Of a stretch of 32,568 nt of DNA, positions 14,503 to 25,436 are shown piece after piece. Position numbers and translations under genes: made by a program. Within the stretch, counting starts at the first letter, position 1. Each line of letters begins with the position of its first letter. The stretch is from Prevotellaceae bacterium (GTDB lineage: Bacteria; Bacteroidota; Bacteroidia; Bacteroidales; UBA932), in NCBI GenBank assembly GCA_031264875.1, contig JAISDK010000117.1, forward strand, positions 1 to 32,568, given 5' to 3'. The notes beneath the pieces are model-generated. The model did no database searches. It saw nothing but the letters and a program-made list of their open reading frames with translations, and was not told where the DNA came from.

Positions 14503-15483
14503 TCAGTTCGGCTTATATTTCGCCTGTTCGAATATTTTGTGATAATCGTCGTTGTCCATCAGTTCCCGGAGACTTTGGGGATTGTTTTTCATATACTTTG
14601 CTATTATATTGTATCCAATCCAGTTACAGGCTCTGCCGGGCGATTCGTGAGTAAACTGAGTGGTATTCGGAGCAGGCTCCGTCAGTTTTCTAATCTCAAA
14701 AGGGTTTGTTGAGAACAGCAGTTTCTCTTCAATCAGAGTTATCCACATGGTTTTTTCGTTATTTTTACACCAGCGTAGATGGTCGGCTGTAAATCCGAAT
14801 ATTAGCGAATCGGCTTCGTCGGGCAGAATCATTTTCGTGGCATAAAGAATTTTCCCTTCAAACAGCATTTTCGAAATCAGGTCATTGTTTTTTCTCGTAT
14901 CCAATGCCCATTCGCTGTCTGTCCAGGCTGCGATGTAATCGGAAGCGATTTTTTCGGGATACATGTTTCGCGACATGTATTTGTGAAATTTCAGTTTGCT
15001 GTAAAATTCGTAGTCCGCTCCCAGATACTTGTCCAGCCCGATGGCAAGAACGCTGTCTGTCAATATAAGAGACTGATTGTATCCCGAAATGTACGTGTAA
15101 ACTTTCGGGACAGGCTTGTCGGGAAAATAGTAGCGGTAGTATTTGAAAGCCTCGGTGAGCTTTCCGGTAAGTTTCCTCAAGTCGGGATACTGCTTTTTCA
15201 CATCGCTGTATGCCTGCATAACAATGGAATCGGTTTTGAACATATTGAAATATTCATTGAACGAACTGTCCCTGCAGTTTCCAATATCAAGAATACCTTC
15301 GGTATATAAGTCGAAGAATATCCCGTATTTATTGTGCAGGCTGTCAACGGGGCTGTTGAAAATATCCATGTCCAGGCGCTGTATTTCCATACTGAGGCTG
15401 ATATTCGAGATATCAGGCTTTTCGCTTTGACACGCAGCCAGCAGGCATGTTAAACATGCGATAGCAAAACAGTTTTTTTTCAT
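14503..15483 (-). CDS. gldB: Gliding motility lipoprotein GldB
   Basis: 326 aa with a lipoprotein signal (LLAAC|QSE). The C-terminal ESPGRACNWIGYNII...FEQAKYKPN and the central YYFPDKPVPKVYTYISG match my recollection of the GldB family. Confidence 0.7.
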   Translation of the reverse strand: MKKNCFAIACLTCLLAACQSEKPDISNISLSMEIQRLDMDIFNSPVDSLHNKYGIFFDLYTEGILDIGNCRDSSFNEYFNMFKTDSIVMQAYSDVKKQYPDLRKLTGKLTEAFKYYRYYFPDKPVPKVYTYISGYNQSLILTDSVLAIGLDKYLGADYEFYSKLKFHKYMSRNMYPEKIASDYIAAWTDSEWALDTRKNNDLISKMLFEGKILYATKMILPDEADSLIFGFTADHLRWCKNNEKTMWITLIEEKLLFSTNPFEIRKLTEPAPNTTQFTHESPGRACNWIGYNIIAKYMKNNPQSLRELMDNDDYHKIFEQAKYKPN

Positions 15484-15506
15484 GATTTTCTGCTACAGAT
15501 TTAATT

Positions 15507-17039
<1,533 letters not shown>

Positions 17040-17159: not shown

Positions 17160-18716
17160 TCAGGCTCCTACTACTGTAACTGTTTTTCCGTTTACCGTTT
17201 TCCTGTGTATATAGATTTTATCGCTCCATTTGATTTTCTTGCGACGGTCGAAAACAACCATCCATCCTTCGTTGCAGCCGCATGTATCCATGTAGCGGAC
17301 AGTCTGTTGCAGACCCTTTTCCAGATATTTGACGCCATAGCATATTTTCAGTTCTATTGGATATTTCCTGTCCCCATATATAATGCAAAGATCGATGCGA
17401 CCCGCACCTATCGCCATTTCGCGGATAATCTGTCCGCCTCCATTGACCACCCTTTGCAGAAATGCCATCATCACCAGATGCGGCGCCGCTTCCCGGTAGT
17501 CAATTTTTTTCATGTACATTTCGCTGTTTTCGCGCCAAAACTGCTGAAAGTCACGCATCAGGTAATCCATGTCTATCTGTCCGTTCTTCAGATAGCGGGG
17601 CATCTCATACGGGTATTGCGGGTCTTTCAGAGCTTCCTGTGCGGAAAATGACAGTTTGCGTATAATTATTTCAGCATAAATGGGATTTGCCGGTTTTACT
17701 ATTGAGTTCACCACGCAAATCAGTCCCAAATCCTGTGCATACAGAAAATCGTCCGATTCCCTGTCGATAAGTTCTTCGCCGAGTATTAAGGGTTCTATTA
17801 CACTGCGTACCCGTTCTTCCTTAAGCCGTTCGAGCAGGCTGTCGATATGTGTGGGACGATTGAGGATAATATTTTGAATAGCTTCGTTCACCAGTTCTGC
17901 CGTGACGGGTTTTGAATAGTCCGACTGCAACAGTTTCACAATCGCTTCGCGGGCAATGGCATTAACTATCCATGGCTGTCCCTGCGTCTGTTCCCATGCA
18001 AGTTCAATAGCATCCTCTTCAAATTTCTGTCCGTTTTCTTCGGTATGCTGCCGGTAAAGGGAGGCGATTTCTTCCCTGGTGAAATTGTTCAGTGTAAAAG
18101 TCTCCGTAACTATGTTAAACGGACTTGCACTGCCGAGCGTCTGCCCGTCGGGACGCACCTTTGCCTTATAGTCGCGAATGTTACGCATACCAACCAGAGC
18201 TATGGAATGTACAAAAGGCACTGTGCTACGGTCATTATAACCGTCCCGCAATTGACGGAGGAAGGATATTAATGTTCCTTCGCTAAGGCAGTCGGCTTCG
18301 TCGAATAACATAACCAAAGGTTTGTCAAGCAACATGCAAAACAGTGTAAGCTCGGTATTTAATACCCCTGTAAAATTATCATAATCGGCTTCCTGTGCAA
18401 ATTCAGCGCTGTGAGGAATACCCGAAAATCGAAGTGTATTTTTAATCTTTTTTACAATTTCCGGTATGCCTTCTTTCGGTTCGCCAATCTCCTGCATACG
18501 TTCCAGAGAGCAATATACAGCGTAATATCTTCCCGATTCGTTGAGCCGCCGAGCCAAATCTCTGATATAGGTTGTTTTCCCGCTCTGGCGCGCCGCATGA
18601 ATAACAAAGTACTGTTTCTCGTCAATCAACTGTTCCACGCCTTTCAATCGGGTAGAAGCTTCTATCATATAATGTTCGTTACTGTTACAGGGTCCTGCTA
18701 TGTTGAAGTATCGCAT
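17160..18716 (-). CDS. P-loop ATPase (AAA/ORC-like) fused to a C-terminal PD-(D/E)XK nuclease-like module
   Basis: 518 aa. The N-terminus is MRYFNIAGPCNSNEHYM. Walker A is AARQSGKTT and Walker B is LVMLFDEAD. The C-terminal GAGRIDLCIIYGDRKYPIELK has the D...E-x-K restriction-endonuclease-fold pattern. Confidence 0.65.
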   Translation of the reverse strand: MRYFNIAGPCNSNEHYMIEASTRLKGVEQLIDEKQYFVIHAARQSGKTTYIRDLARRLNESGRYYAVYCSLERMQEIGEPKEGIPEIVKKIKNTLRFSGIPHSAEFAQEADYDNFTGVLNTELTLFCMLLDKPLVMLFDEADCLSEGTLISFLRQLRDGYNDRSTVPFVHSIALVGMRNIRDYKAKVRPDGQTLGSASPFNIVTETFTLNNFTREEIASLYRQHTEENGQKFEEDAIELAWEQTQGQPWIVNAIAREAIVKLLQSDYSKPVTAELVNEAIQNIILNRPTHIDSLLERLKEERVRSVIEPLILGEELIDRESDDFLYAQDLGLICVVNSIVKPANPIYAEIIIRKLSFSAQEALKDPQYPYEMPRYLKNGQIDMDYLMRDFQQFWRENSEMYMKKIDYREAAPHLVMMAFLQRVVNGGGQIIREMAIGAGRIDLCIIYGDRKYPIELKICYGVKYLEKGLQQTVRYMDTCGCNEGWMVVFDRRKKIKWSDKIYIHRKTVNGKTVTVVGA

Positions 18717-18833
18717 CGTTATAAAAATTTAATTTCACTTTTCTCATTTTCACTTTTATGATTATTGCTGTCATTATAATAACATTATAATGTGACATAA
18801 AAAATCGCAGACAAAAGTATAAAAAAATATTTA

Positions 18834-18841
18834 TACATTTG
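18834..18841 (+). promoter_or_regulatory. Candidate -7 box TAcaTTTG for the six-gene operon
   Basis: tacatttg lies 42 nt upstream of the ATG at 18883, in an AT-rich divergent intergenic region. A mirror box for the minus-strand gene (caaaagta) is at 18812-18819. Confidence 0.35.
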
Positions 18842-18882
18842 TCCCCCGAAAATATATCGAATATATAAATAAAGTAAATATA

Positions 18883-19512
18883 ATGAACTGCAAAATAGTA
18901 GGATACGACTATAAAAGCCTGGAAGTGGAACTCAATCCCTCGGAAAGTTTTTTCTGCGAAAAAGGCGCTCTTGTATATCACGAAAACGGTATCGAAAAGG
19001 ATGTTAGAGTAATAGACAAAGGATTAGGCGGTATGCTGAAACGCAAAATATCGGGCGAAAGCATCTTTCTGGTAGAGTTGAACAACCGGTCAGGCGCAGC
19101 GAAAAAAATGCTGATTTCAGGAAAAATGGGGCTGATTCCTGTTGATTTAAAACTGTTTGGAGGCGAAATCATTTGCCGTGCAGGCTATTATGTCGCCTCC
19201 AACAGGAACGTGGACGTTAACTTTTCACTCAACCTGTCATCCTTGATAAGCGACATGCAGCTGGCCATGCAGAAAATATCCGGTGACGCCACCGTTTTCC
19301 TTGATTCTGTCGGTTCGGCTATACGTTTGGACGTCAAAGCAGAATCGTCCGTCTATGTCGATGAAAAACACTTTATTTGTATCAATGCCGGCTCGATAGG
19401 CAATCTTCAGTCCACATTTTCCGCAAGAGGCTTTTTGGGAGGCGAAGGACTGTCGATGTATCACATCACCGGCCCTGCCACAGTGTATGTTTCCACACAG
19501 CAAACGAAATAA
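18883..19512 (+). CDS. AIM24 / TIGR00266 (DUF124) family protein
   Basis: 209 aa. It starts like the family (MNCKIVGYDYKSLEVELNPSESFFCEKGALVY), contains the ..GESIF.. motif and ends GEGLSMYHITGPATVYVS. Confidence 0.75.
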   Translation: MNCKIVGYDYKSLEVELNPSESFFCEKGALVYHENGIEKDVRVIDKGLGGMLKRKISGESIFLVELNNRSGAAKKMLISGKMGLIPVDLKLFGGEIICRAGYYVASNRNVDVNFSLNLSSLISDMQLAMQKISGDATVFLDSVGSAIRLDVKAESSVYVDEKHFICINAGSIGNLQSTFSARGFLGGEGLSMYHITGPATVYVSTQQTK

Positions 19513-19524
19513 AAATTATTTATT

Positions 19525-20580
19525 ATGAGACGATTACCTATATATTTTCTAATTGACGTTTCCGAATCCATGGTTGGAGAGCCTGTCGGTCTGGTGCAGG
19601 ATGGAATGTCAACAATAATAAAAGACCTGCGTACAGACCCTTACGCCCTGGAAACAGTCTATATTTCCATTATTGCTTTCGCCGGAAAAGCACAGAAAAT
19701 CACGCCACTGATGGAGTTATTCAACTTTTATCCGCCCAAGCTTCCTGTCGGAGGCGGCACTTCCCTCGGTAAAGCCCTTGATTTTTTGATGAACGATATA
19801 TCCGGCTCGGTAAAGAAAACTACCCTGGAAGAAAAAGGTGACTGGAAACCAATTGTTTTTCTGTTCACCGACGGTAACCCAACCGACAATTTCGACAGCA
19901 GCTTTGAACGCTGGAATCAAAAATACCGTCGAAGTGCAAACCTGATTGTCGTTGCCATAGGAACAGGGATTGACACGGGTATTTTCGGCAAAATAACCGA
20001 TAATATTCTGGTACTTAAAGATACGGATGCCGAATCTTTCAGAAAATTCTTCAAATGGGTTACGGCCTCTATCAAGACAAGCAGCGTGAGCGTCAGTGAA
20101 ATCAACGACGATGAACTGCATCTGGCTCCCGTAGGCAATGACGGATATTTATCCAAAATCAATTTGAACAAACATCAGGCACACGCGAAAATAGACGACA
20201 ATTATGCGGTCATATTAGCCAAATGCCAGACCACAAAACAGCCTTACCTTATTAAATACCGGAAAAGAATTTCATCCGGACAGTATTCCGAATTTGCTAT
20301 GGATGTGGTGGACTATAAGCTTGTAGGAGCCTATCCTGTAGATAATACCTATTTTGAATTATCGGAAAACACCGAAAGCGGCAGTAAAATAAACACCAGT
20401 TCCTTATCCGGATTTCCGGCATGTCCCTGTTGCGGAAACCAGTACGGATTCAGTTACTGTTCATGCGGAAAAGTGATATGCACCGGTGAAGAGGAAATTA
20501 CAAAATGTCCGTGGTGCGGAGTAGAAGCGCATTTCGGTTTTGGCGAAGGAAGTGCAGATATAACAAGAACAAAAGGTTAA
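19525..20580 (+). CDS. TerY-like von Willebrand factor A (vWA) protein with a C-terminal Cys-rich Zn-ribbon domain
   Basis: 351 aa. The N-terminus MRRLPIYFLIDVSESM carries the MIDAS DxSxS motif (Asp codon at 19555). GGGTSLG and FLFTDGNPTD are also present. The C-terminal CPCCGN..YCSCGKVIC..CPWCG falls at nt 20422-20520. Confidence 0.8.
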   Translation: MRRLPIYFLIDVSESMVGEPVGLVQDGMSTIIKDLRTDPYALETVYISIIAFAGKAQKITPLMELFNFYPPKLPVGGGTSLGKALDFLMNDISGSVKKTTLEEKGDWKPIVFLFTDGNPTDNFDSSFERWNQKYRRSANLIVVAIGTGIDTGIFGKITDNILVLKDTDAESFRKFFKWVTASIKTSSVSVSEINDDELHLAPVGNDGYLSKINLNKHQAHAKIDDNYAVILAKCQTTKQPYLIKYRKRISSGQYSEFAMDVVDYKLVGAYPVDNTYFELSENTESGSKINTSSLSGFPACPCCGNQYGFSYCSCGKVICTGEEEITKCPWCGVEAHFGFGEGSADITRTKG

Positions 20581-20591
20581 TATGTATATTT

Positions 20592-22325
20592 ATGGGAATT
20601 AACAATTTTACACCGGAATTATATAAAGTACTGCAGGAAGTCCATCAATCGTTGCAGGAAGTAAATCAAAATGTATCAATAATTCAACAAACTTTATCGA
20701 AAACAGTCGAAATCTTGCAGGGATACACAGCCTTGCAGGAACCGGTTGAAGATACTCAGGAATCGGCCAAAGATCTGCAGGAACCAGCCAAAGATCTGCA
20801 GGAACCGGCCAAAGATCTGCAGGAACCGGCCAAAGACCTGCAGGAATCGGCCAAAGATCTGCAGGAATCGGCCAAAGACACGCAGAAATCGGCCAAAGAC
20901 ACGCAGAAATTGGACGAAGCCCCTCCAGTACCGGACGAAATTTCGACAGAATCAAATGTATTAGAAGTTCAAAATACGCAAGCAAACATGAAGTTAGGAC
21001 AAGAAAACAATACTCCCGAAAACAGGGAAGAAGCAAAAAACAGAGCCTTTGATATTCAAATAAAAAATAAGGATATAAAATTCCCTCCCGGAAAAATAAA
21101 CCAGCAATATGCAATCAACTTTGACATTAAAAATCTCGGAATGCCGGATCTTGCAGAAGTTTCGTTCAAGGGACTGGAAGATGTTGGGTTACGATATTTT
21201 CCCGAAGACGGACAAATAAAGGGTATTCCGGTACAGGCAGGCGAACACAAAATCACAATGCTGTGTAAACGCAATGACTGGACGGAGGGACGGCCTGTTT
21301 TCGAGCGGGACATTAATCTTATTATCAATCATGACCCGCGTTCGCTGTGGCACAATATTCCTACTCCAACAGATATCGAATATTACAAGCCCGACGAAGA
21401 CAGTGAATTTGTGAAAATCGAAAACATGGAAACGGAAACGTCCGAACCCGGCGAAGAAGAATACCGTAGAAAAAATATGATTGCAGCAAGTCAGCGCGGA
21501 CGCTCACATGCCCACGAAGGAAAACCCCGCGACGATGATTTTGCATTGAATTTCAACAAAGAAACAGGATGGTACACAATGGTTGTTGCCGACGGCGCCG
21601 GTTCGGCCAAATACTCGCGGAAAGGTTCCCGGATTGCCTGCGAAACAGCTATTGACGTTTGCAATACGCAATTAGACGTAAACAGCGAAGATTTTGAAGA
21701 AAACATCCGGCTTTTCGAAAAAGCCCAGTCTCCGGAAAATCACGAAAAAATCGTTAGAATACTCTACAACATTATTGGCCAGGCGGCATTCCAGGCATAT
21801 AAAAACATCCAGGAAGAAGCGGAAAAACAACGCTATAACCTGAAAGACTATTCCACAACCCTGATACTTTCGATCAGTAAAAAATTTGATTTCGGCTGGT
21901 TCATCGCCGCATTTTGGGTAGGCGACGGAGGAATAGGCATTTACCGTAAAGAGCCGGAATACCTGAAAATACTTGGAGAACCCGACGGAGGCGAATTTGC
22001 AGGACAGACGAGGTTTTTGACAATGAACGAAATATTTGTATGGAAAAGCATGTCTAAACGCTTGCGTTTCGACATCGTGCCGGATTTTACCGCACTGGTT
22101 CTCATGACTGACGGTGTGACTGACCCGAAATTCGAGACCGACGCCAGCCTCAACAGCACCGGCAAATGGCATACATTGTGGGACGACCTGCAGGGAAAAA
22201 ACGAGGAAAATGCAAAAGTCGATTTTACAGGCGACATAGAACAGTCGGCACATCAATTGCTTAAATGGCTGGATTTCTGGTCGCGGGGTAATCACGACGA
22301 CAGAACGATTGCAATTTTATTTTAA
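20592..22325 (+). CDS. PP2C-family Ser/Thr phosphatase with an N-terminal heptad-repeat region and an Ig-like segment
   Basis: PP2C-like motifs are present (RGRSHAHEGKPRDDDF, VVADGAGSAKYS, LMTDGVTD, DDRTIAILF). I prefer the ATG at 20592, 11 nt after the vWA stop. The ORF-track start at 20505 would overlap the vWA gene by 76 nt. Confidence 0.75.
   Translation: MGINNFTPELYKVLQEVHQSLQEVNQNVSIIQQTLSKTVEILQGYTALQEPVEDTQESAKDLQEPAKDLQEPAKDLQEPAKDLQESAKDLQESAKDTQKSAKDTQKLDEAPPVPDEISTESNVLEVQNTQANMKLGQENNTPENREEAKNRAFDIQIKNKDIKFPPGKINQQYAINFDIKNLGMPDLAEVSFKGLEDVGLRYFPEDGQIKGIPVQAGEHKITMLCKRNDWTEGRPVFERDINLIINHDPRSLWHNIPTPTDIEYYKPDEDSEFVKIENMETETSEPGEEEYRRKNMIAASQRGRSHAHEGKPRDDDFALNFNKETGWYTMVVADGAGSAKYSRKGSRIACETAIDVCNTQLDVNSEDFEENIRLFEKAQSPENHEKIVRILYNIIGQAAFQAYKNIQEEAEKQRYNLKDYSTTLILSISKKFDFGWFIAAFWVGDGGIGIYRKEPEYLKILGEPDGGEFAGQTRFLTMNEIFVWKSMSKRLRFDIVPDFTALVLMTDGVTDPKFETDASLNSTGKWHTLWDDLQGKNEENAKVDFTGDIEQSAHQLLKWLDFWSRGNHDDRTIAILF
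20751..20918 (+). repeat. Eight tandem 21-bp coding repeats encoding the heptad D(L/T)Q(E/K)(S/P)AK
   Basis: Units begin at 20751, 20772, 20793, 20814, 20835, 20856, 20877 and 20898. Units 3 and 4 are identical and the others differ by 1-5 nt. The repeat is in frame with the phosphatase ORF. Confidence 0.95.
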
Positions 22326-22337
22326 ATATAAACACTT

Positions 22338-23834
22338 ATGGCACAGACTATAAAAATTACAGCAACCGACGGCTCGACCGTTGAGTTCATCGACGAAATA
22401 ATTGGAGCGGGAGGCATGAAAGACGTGTATTTCAGTCCCGACAAATCGTATGTTGTAGCCTTTTTCAGAGATAAGCAGGACTTTAACGCTAAAGACCGGC
22501 TGCAGAACATCACCGGAATTTACCGCGACAAAATATTCAAATCGGAAGGCGGAAACTACTGGCAAGACCTGTATTGCTGGCCTACTAAAATCGTGGAATA
22601 CAACGGAAAGCTGGGTTTAGTCAGCCCTACGTATCAAAAACAGTTTTTTTTCGCAAAAGGTTCCATCAACAATGATATGAATGGAATTAAAGGAAAGGAA
22701 AAGGAAGGAAAATGGTATGCTTCGGCCAAGAATCAAAATAAGATTCTCGCTCCGGAAGAAAAAGGCGACTGGTTCAAATATTTTCAGGTACTCATACGCA
22801 TAAGCCGCGCTGTCAGGCGACTGCATGCCGCCGGACTGGCTCACTCGGATCTGTCGTACAAAAATGTACTGATCGACCCGACTTCGGGCAAAGCCGCAAT
22901 CATCGACATCGACGGCCTGGTAGTTCCCGGAAAATACCCGCCCGATGTGCTTGGCACTCCCGACTTTATAGCGCCGGAAGTGATTTCCACAAAGCATCTG
23001 AAACTCGGCGATCCGGCACGGAAACTGCCCAGCATTGCCACCGACAAGCACGCTTTGGCCGTGATGGTATATATGTATCTGCTGTACAGGCATCCACTGC
23101 GAGGAGGAAAAGTATGGGACCTGGATACCGCCAAAGACGAGGAACTGTCGATGGGATTAAAGGCTTTATTCGTCGAGCATCCTAAAGACAAAGCCAACCG
23201 TGTTAAAATAAGCGATCTGCATCCGGGATGCCTGCCACAGGGCGACCCCGGAAAAATACCATATACCGTATGCGGCCCCTATCTGAAGAAACTGTTTGAC
23301 AGGGCATTTATTGATGCCCTGCACAACCCCCTGGCGCGTCCCACTGCAAACGAATGGGAAGATGCACTGCTGAAAACGGTAGATTTAATGCAGCCATGCC
23401 AAAATCCGGGATGCACCCACAAATGGTTTGTCTTCGATAACTCCACGAAACCGAAATGTCCGTTCTGCGGAACTGAATATCGAGGCGTTCTGCCCGTTCT
23501 CAACCTGTATTCCTCGCGGAGAGCAGGCTCGTTTACGCCCGACGACTACCGGCTAATGGTGTATCACAATCAGTATCTGTATCAATGGCATTCAAACAGA
23601 AACGTTTTCCCGAATGAACGGCTGACCGACGACCAGAAGAAACCCGTCGGATACTTTGTTTTCCACAAAGGTAAATGGATGTTGATAAACCAGAGGCTTA
23701 ACAGTTTGGAAGATAAAACGGAAGGTAAAACAATTCCTGTTGGCCAGGCAGTCGAACTGTCCGACGGAAAACAGATTCTGCTGTCGAAGGAAGACGGGGG
23801 AAGACTGATCATTGTGCAGCTTGTGAAAAACTGA
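22338..23834 (+). CDS. Hanks-type Ser/Thr protein kinase-like protein with a C-terminal Zn-ribbon and a beta-rich (FHA-like?) tail
   Basis: 498 aa. It has the Gly-loop IGAGGMKDVY, the catalytic loop HSDLSYKNVLI (Asp codon at 22848-22850) and a DFG-equivalent IIDIDG (22905-22916). GTPDFIAPEV is the APE motif. The tail carries CQNPGC...CPFCG. Confidence 0.75.
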   Translation: MAQTIKITATDGSTVEFIDEIIGAGGMKDVYFSPDKSYVVAFFRDKQDFNAKDRLQNITGIYRDKIFKSEGGNYWQDLYCWPTKIVEYNGKLGLVSPTYQKQFFFAKGSINNDMNGIKGKEKEGKWYASAKNQNKILAPEEKGDWFKYFQVLIRISRAVRRLHAAGLAHSDLSYKNVLIDPTSGKAAIIDIDGLVVPGKYPPDVLGTPDFIAPEVISTKHLKLGDPARKLPSIATDKHALAVMVYMYLLYRHPLRGGKVWDLDTAKDEELSMGLKALFVEHPKDKANRVKISDLHPGCLPQGDPGKIPYTVCGPYLKKLFDRAFIDALHNPLARPTANEWEDALLKTVDLMQPCQNPGCTHKWFVFDNSTKPKCPFCGTEYRGVLPVLNLYSSRRAGSFTPDDYRLMVYHNQYLYQWHSNRNVFPNERLTDDQKKPVGYFVFHKGKWMLINQRLNSLEDKTEGKTIPVGQAVELSDGKQILLSKEDGGRLIIVQLVKN

Positions 23835-23848
23835 CAGCCGTTTTCCGT

Positions 23849-24523
23849 ATGATACAGCATATTTCCTTTGACTTGTGGCTGACCTTGATTAAATCAAACC
23901 CTCTTTTCAAGCGCAAAAGAGCGGAAATGATTGCCGACAGCTTCCGTCCCAAAAATATGAACGTGGAACAGATTGAAGCCCTTGTCCAGCAAAAAGACAG
24001 GGTGTTCGACAGATATAATGAAATGACCGGAGTAAAAATACCGGCGCGCTTCATGTATCTCAGCGTACTGAAAGCCATCGACCCGCAATCCCGCAATGCT
24101 GATATCGAAAGCGTCCTCTGGCTGATGCTACAGTCCAATGAACTGCTAATGGACTATCCTCCACAGCTTTTAAACGATAAGATACCCGATATTCTCAAGG
24201 CTCTGCAGTCGGAAACCGGAAGCCTCAACATTGGAAGCAATACGGGATACATGGAAGGGTCGATACTGCGCAGAGTATTGAAAAAGATGGGCATATATGA
24301 TTTCTTTACCTTTTTTGTGTTTTCGGACGAAATACAGGCATCAAAACCGTCACCTGCTTTTTTCCAGTCAATTCTCGATAGAACCAGCTTCCCGAAATCC
24401 GGAATATTACATATCGGCGACAATCTGAAAACCGATTACCGCGGAGCCGTAAAATTCGGCTTCAAGGCGATACTGCTTACTGACTCAAATTATACTTTAC
24501 ATGACATTAAATCAAAACTCTAA
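23849..24523 (+). CDS. HAD-superfamily hydrolase with an atypical motif I (FDLWLTL)
   Basis: 224 aa. The motif I nucleophile Asp8 codon is at 23870. Motif II is GSNTG, the motif III Lys is in ASKPSP, and motif IV is HIGDNLKTDYRGA. Confidence 0.7.
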   Translation: MIQHISFDLWLTLIKSNPLFKRKRAEMIADSFRPKNMNVEQIEALVQQKDRVFDRYNEMTGVKIPARFMYLSVLKAIDPQSRNADIESVLWLMLQSNELLMDYPPQLLNDKIPDILKALQSETGSLNIGSNTGYMEGSILRRVLKKMGIYDFFTFFVFSDEIQASKPSPAFFQSILDRTSFPKSGILHIGDNLKTDYRGAVKFGFKAILLTDSNYTLHDIKSKL

Positions 24524-25379
24524 CCGAGAAATTATACGGTTTTCGGCACATCAAATCGATTCTCCCGACAGGTTCGACTTTTCGCCCGAAGAATATTCCA
24601 TATTCAAATACGGATCCGCAAATATTGCCCGCAAATTCGGGTACGAACTGGCCGACAGTTTCATTAAAAACTGCTTTTCACACCGTTACGACGGACAACC
24701 CGTCGCCATTCTCTCAAGCGCATACTCGCATATACCTACGGCGTCATTTTACATGAAAAATTTTTTCGCGGACAAGCTGAACGGATTCCTTTTCAGGAAT
24801 AATTTCCCGGTTGCGGAAGAGATTAAAATCCACCGTACAGTGACATACAGGGAAGATTACGGCGAAATGTCGGCAGACGAAAGGTACAGCCTGATCAAAG
24901 GCGACAAATTTTATGTCGATAAAAACCGTGTCGGCAATAAACTTCTCATATTTCTCGACGACATAAGGATAACAGGCACGCACGAAAGGATTATTGTCAA
25001 AATGCTTGATGATTACGGGATCTTCAACCCGTGCTTCATGCTGTTTTTTGCCGAACTGGCCGACAGCCGGATTCATCCTAAAATAGAAAATACGCTTAAC
25101 AATGCCTTTGTAAAAAAGCCGAGTGACCTCGAATGTATTATACGCAGCGGGCAATTCAGCTTTAACACCAGAACGGTCAAATTTATACTGAACAGCAGCC
25201 ATGATGAATTTGACAGCTTCGTGGCAAAAAGAGACAGCAGCTTTATCAGCGCCCTGTACTATAATGCCATAGGAAACGAATACTACCGCTTTCCTTCCTA
25301 CAGCCGGAACCTGATGCGGCTGATGGAACTGTGTGACATGCCGGCTGACAACGCTGAAGCGCCTCCCGGTTTTTTATAG
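24501..25379 (+). CDS. Phosphoribosyltransferase (PRTase) family protein
   Basis: 292 aa. The PRPP-binding signature is LLIFLDDIRITGTHE (about nt 24943-24987). The ATG overlaps the HAD gene by 23 nt, which suggests translational coupling. Confidence 0.65.
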   Translation: MTLNQNSNREIIRFSAHQIDSPDRFDFSPEEYSIFKYGSANIARKFGYELADSFIKNCFSHRYDGQPVAILSSAYSHIPTASFYMKNFFADKLNGFLFRNNFPVAEEIKIHRTVTYREDYGEMSADERYSLIKGDKFYVDKNRVGNKLLIFLDDIRITGTHERIIVKMLDDYGIFNPCFMLFFAELADSRIHPKIENTLNNAFVKKPSDLECIIRSGQFSFNTRTVKFILNSSHDEFDSFVAKRDSSFISALYYNAIGNEYYRFPSYSRNLMRLMELCDMPADNAEAPPGFL

Positions 25380-25428: not shown

Positions 25429-25436
25429 TACGTTTG
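25429..25436 (+). promoter_or_regulatory. Candidate -7 box TAcgTTTGcg upstream of the nuclease-tpx pair
   Basis: tacgtttgcg lies 112 nt upstream of the ATG at 25548. Confidence 0.25.

Follow-up and report, generated by a model that had tools for sequence, protein, structure and literature searches.

A TerD-less six-gene block in a Prevotellaceae contig, probably a reduced derivative of the Bacteroidota ter-type stress-response operon

Gene sets of the ter and TerY-P kind are very widespread, yet their chemistry and signalling still stand as they were predicted in 2012. TerY-P is a triad consisting of TerY, a PP2C-type phosphatase and a kinase that carries a zinc ribbon fusion (PMC11090510), and is hypothesized to act as a metal-sensing phospho-switch (PMC11090510, PMC4978471). 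The biosynthetic module of ter clusters comprises two or five enzymes, always including a phosphoribosyltransferase (PRTase) and a HAD hydrolase, and its predicted product is a pyrimidine-derived ribonucleoside (PMC11994780); PRTase and HAD are proposed to produce a signal that is sensed by TerB or TerD (PMC7824862). AIM24, a double beta-helix protein, is often found next to TerD and is its probable partner (PMC5822837). According to citing papers, it was Anantharaman, Iyer and Aravind (2012) who tied AIM24, the TerY-P triad and the PRTase-HAD module, also in its two-enzyme version, to ter (PMC11994780, PMC5822837). Furthermore, ter clusters have historically been linked to phage inhibition (PMC7824862), and a three-gene TerY-P triad, whose kinase is reported as an OB-fold fusion (PMC11090510), protected against T7-like phages in the heterologous screen of Gao et al. 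2020 (PMC7699616, PMC11090510). Our literature search found no work on TerY-P, PRTase and AIM24 together. Here, we describe a block of six genes that unites these components at positions 18883-25379 of the 32,568-nt contig JAISDK010000117.1 (assembly GCA_031264875.1, Prevotellaceae bacterium), which in its full length is called the window in the following. We consider it probable that this block is a reduced, TerD-less derivative of a ter-type stress-response operon of the Bacteroidota, organized as one transcription unit.

The block lies on the plus strand and is preceded by a divergent intergenic region:

18717..18882, strand not applicable: divergent intergenic region, 166 nt, 80% A+T, with candidate Bacteroidetes-type -7 promoter motifs on both strands
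18883..19512, plus strand: AIM24-family protein, 209 aa (Pfam PF01987, 5.8e-37)
19525..20580, plus strand: TerY, a vWA protein with a TerY_C domain (PF15616, 1.5e-45; PF00092, 3.7e-10)
20592..22325, plus strand: PP2C-type phosphatase, 577 aa (PF13672, PP2C_2, 7.5e-40, residues 302-520)
22338..23834, plus strand: Hanks-type Ser/Thr kinase, 498 aa (PF00069, 1.2e-9)
23849..24523, plus strand: HAD-superfamily hydrolase, 224 aa (PF13419, HAD_2, 1.1e-12)
24501..25379, plus strand: PRTase_3 ('ComF-like') phosphoribosyltransferase, 292 aa (PF15610, 1.5e-78)

In a Pfam scan, all six proteins score above the curated cut-offs, which bears out the families that a first-pass annotation had assigned from the sequence alone. 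For the protein labelled AIM24/TIGR00266, the NCBIfam model TIGR00266 gives 63 bits against a cut-off of 96.6, so that it is related to this model, but sub-threshold. The gene arrangement is likewise as first described, with six same-strand open reading frames (ORFs) behind an AT-rich divergent promoter region, spacers of 12, 11, 12 and 14 nt between consecutive genes and a 23-nt overlap at the HAD/PRTase_3 junction. In its longest form, the PP2C ORF would open at 20505, but the start at 20592 is favoured by the relatives, in which the gene begins a few bases past TerY. The intergenic region contains a -7 promoter-type motif of the form TAnnTTTG, TACATTTG, at 18834-18841 on the plus strand, 42 nt ahead of the first ATG, and a minus-strand counterpart, TACTTTTG, at 18812-18819, each a match to the consensus only. 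The next intergenic copy on the plus strand, again a consensus match only, precedes the following gene at 25429, and this fits a single transcription unit. A scan for sigma-70 and terminator consensus sequences was uninformative, the sequence being from the Bacteroidota.

The block thus contains a TerY-P triad, as had been proposed: a TerY with both a metal ion-dependent adhesion site (MIDAS) and a TerY_C domain, an adjacent PP2C and an adjacent zinc-ribbon kinase. It also contains the two-enzyme version of the PRTase-HAD module, and the view that these two enzymes belong to ter biology agrees with the citing literature (PMC11994780). By contrast, the remaining parts of a classical ter cluster are missing, in line with the first-pass annotation. 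No TerD was found in the 32.6-kb window by Pfam scans and by phmmer with TerD queries, neither TerC nor TerB nor TelA was found by Pfam scans among the large ORFs of the window or in the Bacteroidales relatives examined, and no ATP-grasp or lyase genes are present in the window.

To place the block in context, we gathered about 170 loci from genomes and metagenomes via homologs of its PRTase, kinase and AIM24, and labelled their ORFs with phmmer, using as queries the window proteins and the TerD, small vWA, bPH_2 and P-type ATPase proteins of one fully equipped locus (L001). For the tally of upstream genes, a locus counted if it was non-redundant, included a TerY-P triad and extended 3 kb or more upstream (n = 89). 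TerD/vWA genes lie upstream of the triad in 85 of these loci and are absent upstream in four. The typical Bacteroidota operon has the order TerD (two to four copies), vWA, (bPH_2), vWA, (AIM24), (84-aa ORF), TerY, PP2C, kinase, (HAD, PRTase_3), often followed by a P-type cation ATPase. This long co-directional operon is seen in L001-L003, in Prolixibacteraceae/Mariniphaga, Tannerella and Dysgonomonas, and in at least 41 human-gut and rumen contigs. The HAD-PRTase_3 pair is optional: it is missing from 41 gut-type loci with enough downstream sequence, while in Pedobacter and Mucilaginibacter it is flanked by TerD genes with no triad nearby. The first-pass annotation had described the triad as wired directly to a two-enzyme module and AIM24, in an architecture that it did not know as characterized; this wiring is not new, as 85 of the 89 loci place these genes in the distal part of a canonical TerD-containing operon.

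The correspondence between the block and the Bacteroidota ter cluster is close. Both have AIM24, TerY, PP2C, zinc-ribbon kinase, HAD and PRTase_3 in identical order, and the block proteins are 44-88% identical to those of TerD-bearing Bacteroidales relatives, with AIM24 at the lower and the kinase at the upper end. The 23-nt HAD/PRTase overlap is common to the block, the TerD-bearing L001 and the TerD-less L084. In the closest TerD-bearing relative (L171, kinase 87% identical), four TerD and two vWA genes precede AIM24, TerY, PP2C and kinase, and the AIM24/TerY gap measures 12 nt, as in the window. Missing from the block are the two to four TerD paralogs, both small vWA genes, bPH_2, the ORF of 84 aa and, on the downstream side, the P-type cation ATPase. 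In addition, and unlike the full cluster, it comes with an AT-rich promoter region of its own or, in two related contigs (L086 and L088), sits behind V-type ATPase genes.

The same reduced form recurs elsewhere. At least five other metagenomic contigs (L084, L086, L088, L169 and L170) carry, as far as each contig reaches, exactly these six genes in the same order, with 64-91% amino-acid identity; a further contig (L085) also has the six genes, but ends inside AIM24, so that its upstream side is not visible. Across these six contigs, the PRTase is 67-81% and the kinase 82-91% identical to that of the window. DNA homology between the window and the related TerD-less contigs is restricted to 18823-25323 and the flanks differ, and those of L086, L088 and L170, as far as they are available, contain no TerD/vWA genes. 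In comparisons of the window with L084, L086 and L088, the ratio of nonsynonymous to synonymous substitution rates (dN/dS) is 0.02-0.21 across the six genes, with synonymous sites near saturation; purifying selection acts on all six genes, whose catalytic motifs remain intact. The conserved order in at least five other contigs means that the adjacency of the genes is not due to chance, and recurrence, homology limits and dN/dS taken together show that the block is not an accidental neighbourhood of genes, nor a remnant in decay. Since all outgroups carry TerD, the TerD-less state is by parsimony the derived one. The block is the 3' segment of an ancestral Bacteroidota ter operon, of which only these six genes are left in a small Bacteroidales sub-lineage, in several chromosomal settings. 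Consequently, it is not a new class of system, but a TerD-less minimal form of a kind that has been described computationally, and only the loss of TerD, of the two small vWA genes and of the P-type ATPase in one small lineage is distinctive.

The settings of the TerD-less blocks vary. V-type ATPase D/I/K genes stand directly upstream of the block in L086 and L088, where the block shares its strand with the subunit K gene, begins 96 nt and 27 nt after it, respectively, and may therefore be co-transcribed with it. In L170, the upstream genes are an unknown one and one for an antiporter. Counting genes that adjoin the block, V-type ATPase genes occur in three TerD-less relatives (L086 3101-3198; L088 3952-3980; L170 1-1579). 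Downstream, other TerD-less contigs continue with two Band_7 genes, with mannitol dehydrogenase or with the CCA-adding enzyme.

On the protein level, conservation was measured over 80-89 homologs, depending on the protein, and the motifs singled out in the first-pass annotation (DVSES in TerY; HSDLSYKN, DIDG and APE in the kinase; the PRTase loop) are present and conserved among them. AIM24 is 83-90% identical to its counterparts in the TerD-less relatives, with a dN/dS of 0.02-0.08, and its sole solved relative is the hypothetical protein PA3696 (PDB 1YOX). TerY possesses an intact MIDAS (D11-x-S13-x-S15, T79 and D116) and a C-terminal, cysteine-rich TerY_C metal-binding domain; the MIDAS residues and the cysteines are invariant or near-invariant in 83 homologs, and a sequence search returned no solved relative. 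The phosphatase retains the catalytic-type motifs RGxSH, DGxG, GDGG, TDG and DDRT, among them those for metal binding. These are preceded by a long and variable N-terminal extension, in which a coiled-coil/heptad repeat is followed by a beta-rich segment. The repeat is encoded at 20734-20899 by 7.9 tandem copies of a 21-nt unit (88% matches), which specify heptads of the form LQE[PS]AKD, and the proteins of close relatives measure between 525 and 623 aa, so that the repeat region is probably a length-variable linker. In six loci with full ter clusters from Prolixibacteraceae/Mariniphaga (L015, L016, L018, L019, L023 and L026), PP2C comes directly after AIM24 and the 84-aa ORF, and no TerY with a TerY_C domain is present; the vWA member of the triad may accordingly be dispensable or be replaced by one of the small upstream vWA proteins.

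The kinase is the most conserved protein of the cluster. Over the Bacteroidales loci compared, it remains 79-91% identical at a length of 496-499 aa, where the other block proteins fall to 44-65%, and it is still 61% identical to its counterpart in a Chitinophagaceae locus; at E<=1e-10, it has 4476 homologs. HSDLSYKN, DIDG and APE are invariant among the aligned homologs, as are the zinc ribbon cysteines C354, C359, C374 and C377. The position of the 'VAIK' lysine in strand beta3, however, is occupied by an invariant phenylalanine (Phe42), and an invariant lysine (Lys28) is found within the glycine loop (G-x-G-G-M-K-D-V-Y). Judging from the alignment, the catalytic lysine thus appears to sit in the glycine loop, as it does in WNK kinases. 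The AlphaFold2 (AF2) model of the kinase has a poor core, with a mean pLDDT (the predicted value of the local distance difference test) of 62, while its C-terminal domain (residues ~385-496) is all-beta with a pLDDT of 85-94; Foldseek with the whole model gave protein kinase matches only.

The HAD protein departs from the common pattern at one position. Motifs II (SNT), III (SKP) and IV (GDxxxxD) have been kept, along with the acidic residues that bind Mg, but in motif I (S-F-D-L-W-x-T-L-I), the Asp+2 position of the general acid/base is taken by tryptophan in 83 of 83 homologs. Matches in NCBIfam are to generic HAD-IA models only. The D-x-W-x-T-L motif is also found in the HAD proteins of Rhizobium phage RHph_I1_18 (L173 3285-3950) and Escherichia phage phiWec179 (L174 3328-3984), and proteins with this feature may represent a distinct HAD subfamily. 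The neighbouring PRTase_3 has an intact phosphoribosyl pyrophosphate (PRPP) loop, LLIFLDDIRITGT, with D153-D154-x-x-x-T158-G159-T160. Its AF2 model (pLDDT 85) retrieves type I PRTases in Foldseek (HGPRT, PyrR, ComF and ShosT, E~1e-4), which confirms the PRTase fold, while its sequence profile gave no meaningful match among PDB sequences. With ShosTA and ComF-type PRTases, it shares the type I fold (Foldseek E~3e-4), but the likeness is at the fold level only (12-15% identity, TM 0.3-0.4), and accessory domains and partner genes differ.

HAD-PRTase_3 pairs also travel on phages and plasmids. In a tblastn search of GenBank phages, PRTase_3 homologs with ~31% identity were found in 157 phage genomes, including those of Phapecoctavirus and of Klebsiella, Rhizobium, Brevundimonas and Campylobacter phages, whereas an IMG/VR scan with the PRTase alignment returned no relative of the clade to which the PRTase of the block belongs. 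In both phage records examined (Phapecoctavirus and Rhizobium phage), the PRTase_3 gene overlaps the HAD gene, and in phiWec179 (L174 3328-6587), the overlapping pair adjoins a TerC gene and lies near a gene for anaerobic ribonucleotide reductase. On the Rhizobium plasmid pRL10, the pair stands alone, and on a Hymenobacter plasmid, it is found beside a divergent TerD-vWA-PP2C-kinase operon. The cassettes of Phapecoctavirus, the Rhizobium phage and pRL10 resemble the block in the overlap and in the D-x-W-x-T-L motif, but differ from it in being solitary or next to TerC and in their PRTase identity of ~31%. Neither a TerY-P triad nor AIM24 is annotated in the 4-9 kb flanks of these three phage and plasmid records.

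For the reduced ter-type operon that we favour, the most likely role is tolerance to chemical, cation or envelope stress, rather than a dedicated function against phages. Cation, metal or envelope stress is favoured over phage defence by the neighbours of the full clusters, which in L001-L003 include a P-type cation ATPase and Metal_resist/LTXXQ genes, and by the housekeeping context of the block. The mechanism that we infer follows the model which citing papers attribute to Anantharaman, Iyer and Aravind (2012). PRTase_3 would couple a base-like compound with PRPP, and the HAD partner would process the 5'-phosphate to yield a nucleoside-like small molecule that serves as the stress signal. 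The kinase and PP2C would set the phosphorylation state of the metal-binding TerY, and through this phospho-switch, the response would be linked to a cue from divalent cations or envelope stress. As the proposed sensors TerD and TerB are gone, AIM24 would be the best remaining candidate for a ligand-binding or output protein. Several points weigh against this picture. The absence of the Asp+2 general acid/base from HAD means that a 5'-nucleotidase step of the simple kind is not assured; one TerY-P triad did confer protection from T7-like phages when screened in a heterologous host (PMC7699616); we found no experimental work on the Bacteroidales TerD/PP2C/vWA cluster in the literature; and TerD/TerC genes may exist elsewhere in the genome, beyond the 32-kb window, in which case the block might not be self-sufficient.

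The last point leads to the alternative that the block is not autonomous at all, but only the distal half of a ter operon, split off by translocation, that works together with TerD, small vWA and cation ATPase proteins encoded elsewhere in the genome. The description of AIM24 as a probable TerD partner (PMC5822837) suits such an arrangement, as do other rearrangements of the cluster: in L039, HAD-PRTase-ATPase comes first and the TerD-vWA-TerY-P part follows downstream, in L031, kinase and PP2C are encoded ~7 kb off on the opposite strand, and the halves diverge on the Hymenobacter plasmid. The physical linkage to TerD/vWA in 85 of the 89 informative loci likewise speaks for it. However, no TerD/vWA genes occur within the 18.8 kb upstream and 7.2 kb downstream of the block that the window covers, or in the flanks of L086, L088 and L170, and we regard a split operon as a real, if somewhat unlikely, possibility.

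A self-contained system of phage defence or abortive infection, in which TerY-P senses infection and PRTase/HAD drain PRPP or nucleotides or make a toxic nucleoside, so that phage replication stops, appears unlikely to us. The first-pass annotation had suggested a self-contained conflict or stress system and had correctly referred to the anti-phage result for TerY-P from Gao et al. 2020 (PMC7699616, PMC11090510). The block shares with that system the three-part logic, in which a metal-binding vWA protein is combined with a PP2C and a Ser/Thr kinase (PMC7699616), but its kinase features a zinc ribbon and an all-beta C-terminal domain where a C-terminal OB fold is reported for the other (PMC11090510), and its triad stands in one operon with AIM24, HAD and PRTase_3, outside a defence island. 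The historical phage inhibition by ter clusters (PMC7824862), the fold-level resemblance of the PRTase model to the defence toxin ShosT, one of many PRTases that it resembles, and the varying location of the block between contigs could also be read in favour of defence.

PADLOC-DB v2 includes TerY-P models. PADLOC yields no system-level match for the block or the neighbouring genes at either default or permissive thresholds; TerY and PP2C remain unmatched even at E<=10, and the kinase matches only the generic kinase models PD-T4-6, mad6 and MkoA. All remaining large ORFs of the window are housekeeping genes according to the Pfam scan, the G+C content of the block (0.449) is that of the window (mean 0.443), and mobile-element genes are absent around the block. 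Of the expected gene neighbourhood, the recurrence as a unit in at least five other contigs was thus recovered, while the defence island was not. Moreover, the ancestral cluster is tied to a cation ATPase and metal-resistance genes, and the carriage of PRTase_3 by 157 phages is more in keeping with a cassette for metabolism or signalling than with an effector of host suicide. The finding by itself lends a defence function no support.

A bolder version of the ter-type reading would make the block a fully autonomous minimal ter system, in which AIM24 replaces TerD/TerB as the receptor of the PRTase_3/HAD signal, the tryptophan-bearing HAD carries out a non-canonical step (e.g. a long-lived phospho-enzyme or a phosphotransfer) and the WNK-like kinase with its glycine-loop lysine gates the pathway. 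We think this improbable, but if true, the block would give the simplest natural access to the ter metabolite and to what AIM24 does in bacteria. Lastly, a decaying ter-operon remnant, left functionless by a deletion, has in its favour that the block corresponds to the ancestral operon without the 5' genes and the 3' ATPase gene, but is highly improbable, as the six ORFs are intact with invariant catalytic motifs, the six-gene form persists in at least six diverged contigs and, above all, the low dN/dS against three relatives at near-saturated synonymous sites largely refutes it.

The value of the reduced ter-type operon lies in the selection that the lineage itself has made: it shed TerD, the small vWA proteins and the cation ATPase and kept six genes under purifying selection, and thereby points to a minimal set. 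At 6.5 kb, this set is clonable and offers a route to the metabolite, to what the kinase phosphorylates and to the part that AIM24 plays. The tryptophan at Asp+2 of HAD and the hyper-conserved kinase with its glycine-loop lysine are smaller new observations.

The housekeeping genes in the rest of the window include those for Rnf subunits, aminopeptidase P, a Clp-family AAA+ chaperone (ClpB/ClpC-type), aconitase, GldB, an F1-beta ATP synthase subunit, a bifunctional nuclease, Tpx, GuaA, PolA and MqnC. Divergent from AIM24, at 17160-18716 on the minus strand, lies a gene for an AAA ATPase (AAA_35, 4e-8) with a C-terminal PD-(D/E)xK-like motif, which has no PADLOC system match. An ATPase of the same family, 26% identical, is encoded inside a ter operon at the usual position of TerY (L090 8253-9977, plus strand). 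We considered the upstream gene as a mobile element behind the deletion of TerD, but rejected this idea, as the L090 homolog is just 26% identical and no evidence supports it. Further upstream, at 14503-17039 on the minus strand, gldB comes 23 nt after the F1-beta-type ATP synthase gene (15507-17039), and a gene for the epsilon subunit is missing between the two, unlike in L002, where the beta and epsilon genes adjoin.

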